64,000 bases of DNA from Escherichia coli (GCF_044647545.1 NZ_CP172818.1); one strand, 5' to 3'; numbered from the stretch's first letter, positions 15,700 to 18,460 are shown. The notes: generated from the sequence alone by a model not told the origin. Numbers and translations are program-made.

Positions 15700-18460
15700 A
15701 TAAATTAATTATTTTAACTCTTATGTGCCTCTTTATTTACAAAAGTTGAATTATGAACAAGAGTTTAATTACCAGAAGGTGAGTTATTACTGAGAAAGTA
15801 ATAGAAGATACAAAATATCTTACAGAATTGATTTCTTTTGTGAGAAAAATTTTATAAATCAATGATGATATTTAAAATCACACTTTTTGAAACACGATAC
15901 CCCACACTCGGGGGTAAAATAATCTGCAAATATCCCATCAGCTTGCCATCACCTTTAAATATACTTTCGAGTCGTTCTAATCAAAATGAATTATCGATGT
16001 ATGATTTCTAGGAACCATAAAAACAATGAATGGAACATATTATAGTCTGCCAAAAGACGGCCTATGCGGTGCCTTGACAACGATTTTCTATCATCTCTGC
16101 ATATCTTCATTAGAATATAAAGGTCCTGGCTCAATAAATGCAGAGCTGACGGAATAGGGTTTCGTTAACACTCATCGGGTGAAGTATGGAAAGGGCCCAA
16201 CTGGGTGAATTTTAAAGAACGATTTTACTCATTTTATGAAACAAGTGCTAACAGCCGTAGCGGGGCGTAATCATACCGTTTCGCTATGACACATGTCAAC
16301 TCTTTGACTCCAATATGACTTTCTTTGGCAGAATCTATGGTCAAGGGATAACTCAGGGGGACAACGATAGTTTTAGGTTTGGGCTACCCGGCGGAAGGCA
16401 GGGGGTTTTTTAAACCGTATATAGATTACATAATCAATCTGGAGACTACGTCTCACGCAAATATGGACAGACAAATGGCTGGATTATGGTTGGCGGAAGC
16501 AGATTACCTTTTACGTTATTTAACAAAACTTGTTTTATCTAACTGGAATGAAATAGAACGGACAGAAATGGATGCCAGCGGAACAACAATTTGGTCGGAA
16601 TCGGCTAAATGGCGGTTAACAGTGGCCGGAAGTCTACCGCGGAAAGCCAGGTGACGGGCGTATTCGATAATAAGGGGACGAGGGGCGATCAAATGATTTA
16701 AGCTTGGTTATGATTCTAATTTTCATCAGGAATAATATGCAGAAAACATAATGGCCAGTGACGGCGCAGTGCACAGGGAATGCTTAACCAGCCGAGCGCC
16801 GAAACTAAACAACCCAATTTAGTCATCATATGGCGGAGAAGGCTAGGTGATTGGCAACATATGGACATCAGATCGTTAAAACGCGATATATAGACAGGCG
16901 CCCAGGAAGGCGTCAAATACCGACTATATGCACCGCCCCCTTAAGTTCTCCTCACGGGCGGGACTATAACAGGGCGGATCCATTCTACCATACCTCAATC
17001 CCAAGGGAAAAGATCAAGGGCGTAATAACTCAATTCTAATCTACAAACGCAAGGTACACAGCCATAGGTAACTCATCTAACAGGCGGCGATCCCCAACAC
17101 CCACAAAAATATCTTTATATCACTTTAAAGGCGGGTTTTTTACACTACTCTATAACGAAGGAGCGTCCCGTTTTGGCATGTCTACAAGGCTGTCGTAACC
17201 AACCCACACATTCCATAAAATATTTATATCAGAATCTTAATTATAACAAAAAAATAAGCCTTTCACACAATCAATCCCCCCCCCAAAAATACAAAAAAAA
17301 ACAAAAACAATCTAAACAGCGGATAAACCGTGTACAGAGAAAACAAACAAACAGTAAAATATATAAAACAAAGAGGTAAGAAATAAAATAAATAAAGACA
17401 TAACGTAACCCAAATTAAATAACAGGGAAACTAATAGTTCGCAAGGATAATCTCTGGAAGGTGGCATCCGTGTTGGCGATTCTACGAAACATCCAAAGGA
17501 ATTTCAAACTTAGTCTATATCCAGCCGAAAATATAACTCAAATACGAGGACCGACTACGAATCTTTTCCAAACAAACCTAAAACTAAAACCATTAACAAA
17601 ACCAAATACCAACACGAAGCGATAGTAGTATAAAATATCACACAAAAAACCAAATACAAAAAAAAATAACAAACAAATAAAAATCAAATAAAAAAAATAT
17701 AATTCTAAAATAAACAAAAAAAAAAAACAGAGGTATAAACGGAACGGTAACTGCTAATTATAACATAATAAATTAATATCCAGCCACCCACCTATCAATA
17801 AATAATAAAAAAAAAATAAAAGACCAGGATAAATAAATAAATACAAAAACCAACAAAAACCGTAAACCAATTAACAAACAAAAATAAGGAATCGTTACTC
17901 AAAAATTAAAAAAAAAAGGTTTCCAAATCACAACACATCTAAAAATACTAACAGGGCAGAGGGAATATTTTATCAAAACAAAATAAAAAACAAAACAAAA
18001 AAACAACCTCACAATACTAAAAAAACAAGGCAACGTAATTATAAACAGAAGTAAACATAAAAAATACAAAAAAACCTAAAAATAAAAAAACAAAAAACAA
18101 ACGGTAATCTCCAAAAAATAAAGTAGATCCATAAAAACAAAGAAACTTTTTCCAGTAACCAACAAAAAAGATTATAACGACGTATACTTAAAAAGGGGGC
18201 GATATAAAAAAAGGGATCGTAAACCTTTCCACAAATAAAAAACAAAAAAAAAAAAAAAACAAATTCAACTAAAACAAAAAGCCGGTCCAAAAAAGAAGCG
18301 GCGAGAAAACGACTCATAGAACGCTTTGAGTGGTCTAGAATAAGGGTGCATATAAACTAAAAGAAACAAGAAACAAAGAAAGGGTAAGAGCAAGCGCGAT
18401 CATAAGGATCAAAAACGAAGGGAAGGATAGATATTTTGAAGCATATTGTCCTAACCAATT
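15700..18460. other. anomalous ORF-poor block degenerating into A/C-skewed low complexity
   Basis: no ORF over 92 aa on either strand across about 2.7 kb; 17250-18300 is dominated by A with C and is poor in G/T on the + strand; flanks return to recognisable hokC and nhaA upstream sequence. Confidence 0.85.

Follow-up and report, generated by a model that had tools for sequence, protein, structure and literature searches.

The interval between hokC/sokC and nhaA of Escherichia coli lies in the nhaAR neighbourhood, where a 'putative sulfatase' module beside hokC is a known variable region, 'fragmented or conserved' depending on the strain (PMC4182557). In many strains it carries an island of about 4.05 kb, for which the RefSeq annotation gives OmpK, a sulfatase-family gene and a protein with an IS1/IS1595 N-terminal zinc-binding domain; K-12 has no such ompK-sulfatase-ZnF island. 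We analysed this interval in a stretch of 64,000 nucleotides presented as E. coli DNA (NZ_CP172818.1), the whole of which is called the window here and from the first letter of which all positions are counted. A preliminary description of the window had pointed to a block at 15700-18460 with hardly any open reading frame (ORF), which appeared to begin as pseudo-random sequence and to pass into an A/C-skewed low-complexity tract. The results presented below indicate that this block is almost certainly a corrupted, non-biological rendering of the known island.

The window was compared by BLAST with 5426 complete E. coli genomes, and the search with the block was run in sensitive mode. E. coli FDAARGOS_497 (NZ_CP033850.1) was used as the reference and K-12 MG1655 as the second comparison. 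(For one of the 5426 'complete' genomes, both the dnaJ-nhaA and the folA-apaH searches came back empty, which is odd for core genes.) A total of 1273 of the 5426 genomes matched the block. When delimited by the first and the last difference from the closest natural genome, the aberrant block extends from 15694 to 18479 (2786 nt), and on both sides it is flanked by sequence that is 100% identical to NZ_CP033850.1, a genome with an intact island. The native hokC-nhaA interval in this genome, from the mokC end to the nhaA start, measures about 4.5 kb. The native size of about 0.9 kb that had been expected at first is therefore wrong for this lineage, in which the island is present; it was too short because K-12, which lacks the island, had been taken as native. 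The parts of the block were assigned as follows:

15694..18479, plus strand: whole block, colinear with the ompK-sulfatase-ZnF island of ~4.05 kb but degraded (global alignment, flanks 100% identical)
15694..15770, plus strand: left junction, a per-base mosaic of K-12-like (island-less) and island-bearing alleles (three-way comparison)
16044..16719, plus strand: what remains of ompK (reference length 762 nt), about 15% of the non-A bases gone and the frame destroyed
16737..17757, plus strand: what remains of the sulfatase-family gene (reference length 1494 nt, a pseudogene there), coordinates mapped from the alignment
17250..18430, plus strand: the 'A/C-skewed low-complexity' tract, an ordered subsequence of the real island (longest common subsequence)
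17835..18464, plus strand: what remains of the gene encoding the protein with the IS1/IS1595 N-terminal zinc-binding domain (reference length 1245 nt), about 70% of the non-A bases gone
18425..18479, plus strand: right junction, likewise mosaic between the K-12-like and the island-bearing allele (three-way comparison)

When the block was aligned globally to the reference island (L001 1165-5215), 2695 positions matched and 92 were mismatched, with 1264 bases deleted and 8 inserted, so that about 31% of the letters of the island are missing and deleted bases outnumber substitutions by about 14:1. The deletions fell very unevenly on the four letters (T 538, G 412, C 254 and A 60) even though A and T are roughly balanced in the reference; expressed as fractions of the reference letters, 45% of T, 46% of G and 33% of C were deleted as opposed to 5% of A. 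Over the whole block 95% of A was thus kept compared to 55% of T, and 64 of the 92 mismatches were changes to A. The left half of the block is still 87-88% identical to the island by BLAST. The low-complexity tract was compared with the island by longest common subsequence, and 1170 of the 1181 bases of 17250-18430 could be placed in order, whereas shuffled versions reached 992 +/- 4 (z >40) and shuffles of 50-nt blocks also fell short. The letters kept in this tract are A 647/659 (98%), C 201/435 (46%), T 194/632 (31%) and G 139/490 (28%). These results clearly show that the block is not pseudo-random, as had been believed, but derives base by base from an annotated island. The A/C skew that had been noticed was confirmed by windowed base composition and skew: the G+C content falls from about 0.45 to 0.22-0.29 across 17500-18300, where values of +0.51 to +0.63 are reached for AT skew and of -0.16 to -0.51 for GC skew. 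This skew is however not a trait of an inserted element, but results from a selective loss of T, G and C while A is kept; both the skew and the long A runs arise because the non-A letters between the As have been removed.

Along the block the loss has a definite course. T is thinned from the left edge (about 15700), with 60-85% kept, G collapses from about 16980, and T and C collapse from about 17220. A partial recovery of G is seen near 18280, and all letters are back to 100% at 18480. The retention of A stays at 86-100% across the entire block. This polarity is specific to the plus strand, and the preference for A lies on the plus strand at all three A-rich loci of the window (see below). 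Base loss showed no codon-position effect, and with this null result in the codon-phase test we rejected decay shaped by selection; nor did it depend on local A content, the only structure found being short-range autocorrelation or patchiness. Homopolymer compression of the nanopore type was likewise rejected, as T and G disappear from isolated positions no less often than from runs, and whole T4 runs vanish. Within the sulfatase gene, retention was uncorrelated with protein conservation (Spearman 0.03, p = 0.6), a crude proxy with homologues of 70-95% identity. The best-kept patch in the degraded half, 17436-17475 (L001 3326-3362), has 37 of 38 bases intact and covers the conserved sulfatase motif RGRKDNLWEGGIRVP.

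With about 1264 frame-breaking deletions, all three reading frames are destroyed and none of the island proteins is encoded in the block as an ORF. The longest ORFs within 15700-18460 are one of 92 amino acids (18039-18317, minus strand, poly-Phe/Leu) and one of 91 amino acids (16379-16654, plus strand), in agreement with the preliminary description, which had given 92 amino acids as the upper limit. Its statement that hallmarks of mobile elements are absent also stands, as neither inverted repeats nor a tRNA nor an intact ORF was found in the block. No true repeat unit was detected either: Tandem Repeats Finder (TRF) returned short A-rich low-complexity rows with scores of at most 75, and the direct repeat 'families' given by the repeat finder are A-run matches of 67-85%. 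A search against Rfam gave no family within the block, its sole match (sok, 15462-15614) lying outside. The block is accordingly neither an insertion sequence (IS), nor a satellite, nor an RNA element, and it contains no new biological feature. Position, gene order, colinearity from the first to the last base and the 100% identical flanks link it to the natural hokC-nhaA module of NZ_CP033850.1, from which it differs by lacking 31% of the bases, by its three destroyed frames and by its hybrid junctions. Judged from position and colinear homology, it belongs to this module, but as a corrupted rendering and not as a functional member.

Moreover, the exact string of the block appears to have no independent copy. 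None of the 5426 genomes covers 80% or more of it, and no intermediates were seen. A garbled 40-mer was absent from the GTDB species representatives, and exact look-up of three ORFs specific to the window in an index of 153 billion genes returned neither the poly-Phe ORF, nor the InsB-like ORF, nor the frameshifted EspY1 (239 amino acids, see below). The BLAST comparison with finished E. coli genomes that had been proposed thus produced two answers: the known island was matched, which removes the novelty, and the exact string was not. The impression that the right junction is garbled was borne out as well, since the best match of 18425-18530 in any of the genomes is about 92%.

The block is not the only deviating locus. 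Over the 64 kb, departures from the reference consist of six loci, all at K-12 differences, and three isolated point differences, which are listed here together with the segments between them:

1-15264: segment, 99.987% identical to NZ_CP033850.1
5531 and 5541: one A missing at each position, in a hairpin of the yaaX-yaaA interval and on the border of a K-12-specific repeat of about 100 nt
15262..15288, plus strand: 27-nt stub, GGGTCTCCC-A17-T, between dnaJ and hokC, an insertion relative to the reference
15694..18479, plus strand: the block described above, at the island that K-12 lacks
18480-21026: segment, 100% identical to NZ_CP033850.1
21027..21794: IS1 at the exact position of K-12 IS1A, no target duplication, flanks 100% reference-type
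21794-51569: segment, two differences from NZ_CP033850.1
41640: point difference, T to C, unique to the window
51060: point difference, T8 to T7 just upstream of folA, in neither K-12 nor the reference
51570..51765, plus strand: second corrupted block, the toxin-antitoxin locus ccdA/ccdB of the folA-apaH interval, shortened from 556 nt to 196 nt, A/C-rich
51766-64000: segment, three differences from NZ_CP033850.1
59080: point difference, G, the K-12 allele
60636: one extra G, which shifts the frame of espY1 and lies where K-12 (yabP/yabQ) and the reference lineage differ by a 13-nt indel

Outside the deviating loci the segments are 99.93-100% identical to NZ_CP033850.1, or about 99.99% overall, and lineage indels of 14-33 nt are rendered perfectly. 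The label 'ST131-like' was considered for this lineage and dropped, since the identical-locus matches include strains of other types. Among the three isolated differences the G at 59080 equals the K-12 allele, and those at 41640 and 51060 are unique to the window; the change from T8 to T7 at 51060 is typical of a long-read homopolymer miscall. At 5531 and 5541 it is A that was lost, which is the opposite of the sparing of A in the two blocks.

The ccd block repeats what was seen between hokC and nhaA. The ccdA/ccdB locus is absent from K-12, and in the window it shows the same polarity, with G and T lost first, then nearly everything except A and C, and an abrupt recovery at the right edge. 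Its left junction is likewise a per-base mosaic of both alleles, combining the K-12 indel state with single-nucleotide polymorphisms of the reference type. Both this recurrence at ccdAB and the coincidence of the anomalies with structural differences between K-12 and the lineage had escaped the earlier reading.

Two further anomalies lie at or near the sites of K-12 insertion sequences. The stub at 15262-15288 was absent from all 5426 genomes, the locus being 134 nt long in all best matches versus 161 nt here. It starts 81 nt after dnaJ, and IS186A of K-12 (15387-16731) starts 89 nt after dnaJ. The first nine bases of the stub look like a thinned copy of the neighbouring GGGATCACTCCC, and the whole insertion resembles a thinned target-site copy with an A-only residue. 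The IS1 at 21027-21794 replaces 6.5 kb of the reference (the fimbrial operon and espX1). For 20800-22000 the best natural match was 96.6%, and for the IS1 alone it was 98.0% among about 75,000 copies. The element is itself a mosaic, with 19 positions as in the IS1 of the reference strain, 3 as in K-12 IS1A and 13 that are unique (including a 1-nt deletion at 21540).

Taken together, wherever K-12-like and FDAARGOS_497-like haplotypes differ by at least about 100 nt, the window holds an in-between string of intermediate length, and these strings come from a process that drops letters in the plus orientation and favours A. With moderate confidence we attribute them to a reference-templated consensus or polishing procedure in which K-12 MG1655 was the template and the reads came from an island-bearing isolate. 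Such a computational step would merge two structural versions of a locus, and the island would be written out incompletely. Collinear DNA would be converted fully to the sequence of the isolate, and segments present in one genome only (the islands lacking in K-12, and IS186 lacking in the isolate) would yield the in-between strings. The K-12 IS1 would survive if reads from other IS1 copies of the isolate piled up on it and polished it into a mosaic; the template IS186 would collapse, and large read-borne insertions would be written only in part. That A is retained might reflect its use as a default or zero-coded symbol, which is a guess. As such a procedure would lead one to expect, the anomalies lie at structural differences between template and sample (the six loci, with the three point differences elsewhere), and an IS1 at its K-12 position sits within flanks that are 100% of the sample type. 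The mosaic junctions count in its favour as well, and so does the T8-to-T7 change at 51060, which is typical of long-read consensus. Several points weigh against this explanation, however. To our knowledge, selective dropping of T, G and C with A kept is not documented for any common assembler or polisher, and neither the strand-asymmetric preference for A nor the worsening from left to right in both blocks would be expected where reads of both strands are piled up. Nor is the start of the window at K-12 coordinate 1 diagnostic, as it is common to many independently rotated genomes. Finally, an origin from a generative model explains the polarity and the attraction to A at least as well.

This last explanation, that the sequence was machine-generated or deliberately corrupted and therefore also non-biological, is a real if tentative possibility. 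One form of it is an autoregressive model which has memorised the E. coli backbone, loses fidelity where structural haplotypes compete, drifts to an A-rich attractor and locks on again at the next conserved anchor; the other is a scripted base-dropout applied to accessory segments. A tendency of autoregressive genome models towards repetitive or low-complexity output has been reported (PMC12804078), and the block resembles such output in its directional loss of fidelity, its A-rich low complexity and its blended continuations. Both blocks degrade from 5' to 3' and recover abruptly at the right edge, a direction that is expected of such a model but fits other text-level processes too. The plus-strand preference for A at all three A-rich loci, together with the excess of substitutions to A, points the same way, as do blends with the width of a single token where haplotypes fork (the extra G at 60636 is one), an IS1 that matches no natural copy above 98%, and ORFs specific to the window that are absent from public gene indices. 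In addition, a near-pure deletion channel resembles a text-level process more than read noise. On the other hand, a match of 99.99% with a single natural lineage across about 60 kb would amount to extreme memorisation, and a free-running model should also substitute and insert, whereas the A count here is unchanged (647 vs 659) and colinearity holds to the last base. Unlike autoregressive output, the block stays an ordered subsequence and returns to 100% identity, and its retention is unrelated to the conservation of the sulfatase, crude as this proxy of predictability is. An artefact of sequencing chemistry, in which one raw single-molecule read lost its T, G and then C channels, is unlikely. 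It would account for a deletion-only, base-specific loss with a separate onset for each base (T at about 15700, G at about 16980, C at about 17220) and for the recovery of G near 18280, and the strand asymmetry suits a single read. Raw reads, though, carry several percent of insertions and mismatches, compared with 8 inserted bases in 2.8 kb here, and the island is unique sequence for which many reads are expected in any assembler. Such a drop-out would also leave unexplained why the limits of the corruption are the limits of K-12-absent DNA at two loci, and it does not account for the mosaic character of the junctions, for the presence of IS1 at the K-12 position or for the IS186-site stub.

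The explanations in which the block is real DNA fare worse. A naturally decayed remnant of the island, formed by pseudogenisation, is highly improbable. The sulfatase gene is indeed already a pseudogene in NZ_CP033850.1, the region varies between strains as cited above, and loss of ORFs in an accessory island is what natural pseudogene decay has in common with the block. The block is nevertheless not natural decay because its flanks are 100% identical to a genome with an intact island, which leaves no time to decay. Furthermore, the 14:1 ratio of deleted bases to substitutions is the reverse of the natural spectrum, the sparing of A but not of T would need an extreme strand bias on double-stranded DNA, the 5426 genomes contain no intermediates, and the same signature occurs at the unlinked ccdAB. 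Because A was spared while its complement T was lost at large scale, a process acting through duplex replication is excluded. We give very little credence to the idea of real DNA that underwent strand-asymmetric, adenine-sparing base loss, or that carries hypermodified T, G and C skipped by base-callers, here as well as at ccdAB. A new insertion, satellite-like or mobile, with no relation to known sequence has the unusual composition as its only argument and can for practical purposes be discounted: in the low-complexity half, 99% of the bases can be placed in order on the known island, and there is no repeat unit, inverted repeat, tRNA or RNA family. In the ranking of the preliminary description the artefact and the computer-generated origin consequently survive, while the novel satellite-like insertion is refuted and random filler proved wrong.

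A possible RefSeq precedent for the templated consensus that we favour is BHUCD01 (NZ_CM183442.1), filed there as a clinical isolate, which has the architecture and length of K-12 (4,641,498 bp, IS186 and IS1A both at their K-12 coordinates) yet diverges from MG1655 by 0.85% over 24 kb (positions 1-24000). From its sequence BHUCD01 looks more like a K-12-templated consensus than like a de novo assembly. It shares with the window the presence of K-12-specific IS elements at K-12 coordinates within non-K-12 sequence. The two differ in that IS186 is intact in BHUCD01 and the hokC-nhaA island is absent, whereas in the window the IS186 site holds 27 nt and the island is partly written. BHUCD01 was rejected as the origin of the window itself, to which it is only 97-98% identical.

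The genes on either side of the block are intact:

15312..15464, minus strand: mokC/hokC toxin gene, left flank, 100% identical to mokC of NZ_CP033850.1
15462..15614, minus strand: hok/sok regulatory RNA (Rfam RF01794), 116.9 bits against a gathering score of 59
18720..19886, plus strand: nhaA, right flank, an ORF of 388 amino acids within the 100% reference-type segment 18480-21026

The value of these observations lies in quality control only, and they do not amount to a biological discovery. Should the window stem from an assembly that has been deposited, at least six loci are wrongly represented in that record: two clusters of accessory genes appear as junk, the IS1 and the 6.5-kb deletion are probably a legacy of the template, and espY1 carries a frameshift. 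Entries of this kind would give rise to spurious 'novel' ORFs and to false calls of gene loss. An odd stretch that the nearest genome's allele contains as an ordered subsequence, accompanied by anomalies that track structural differences from K-12, may be a reusable flag for other records of this kind.

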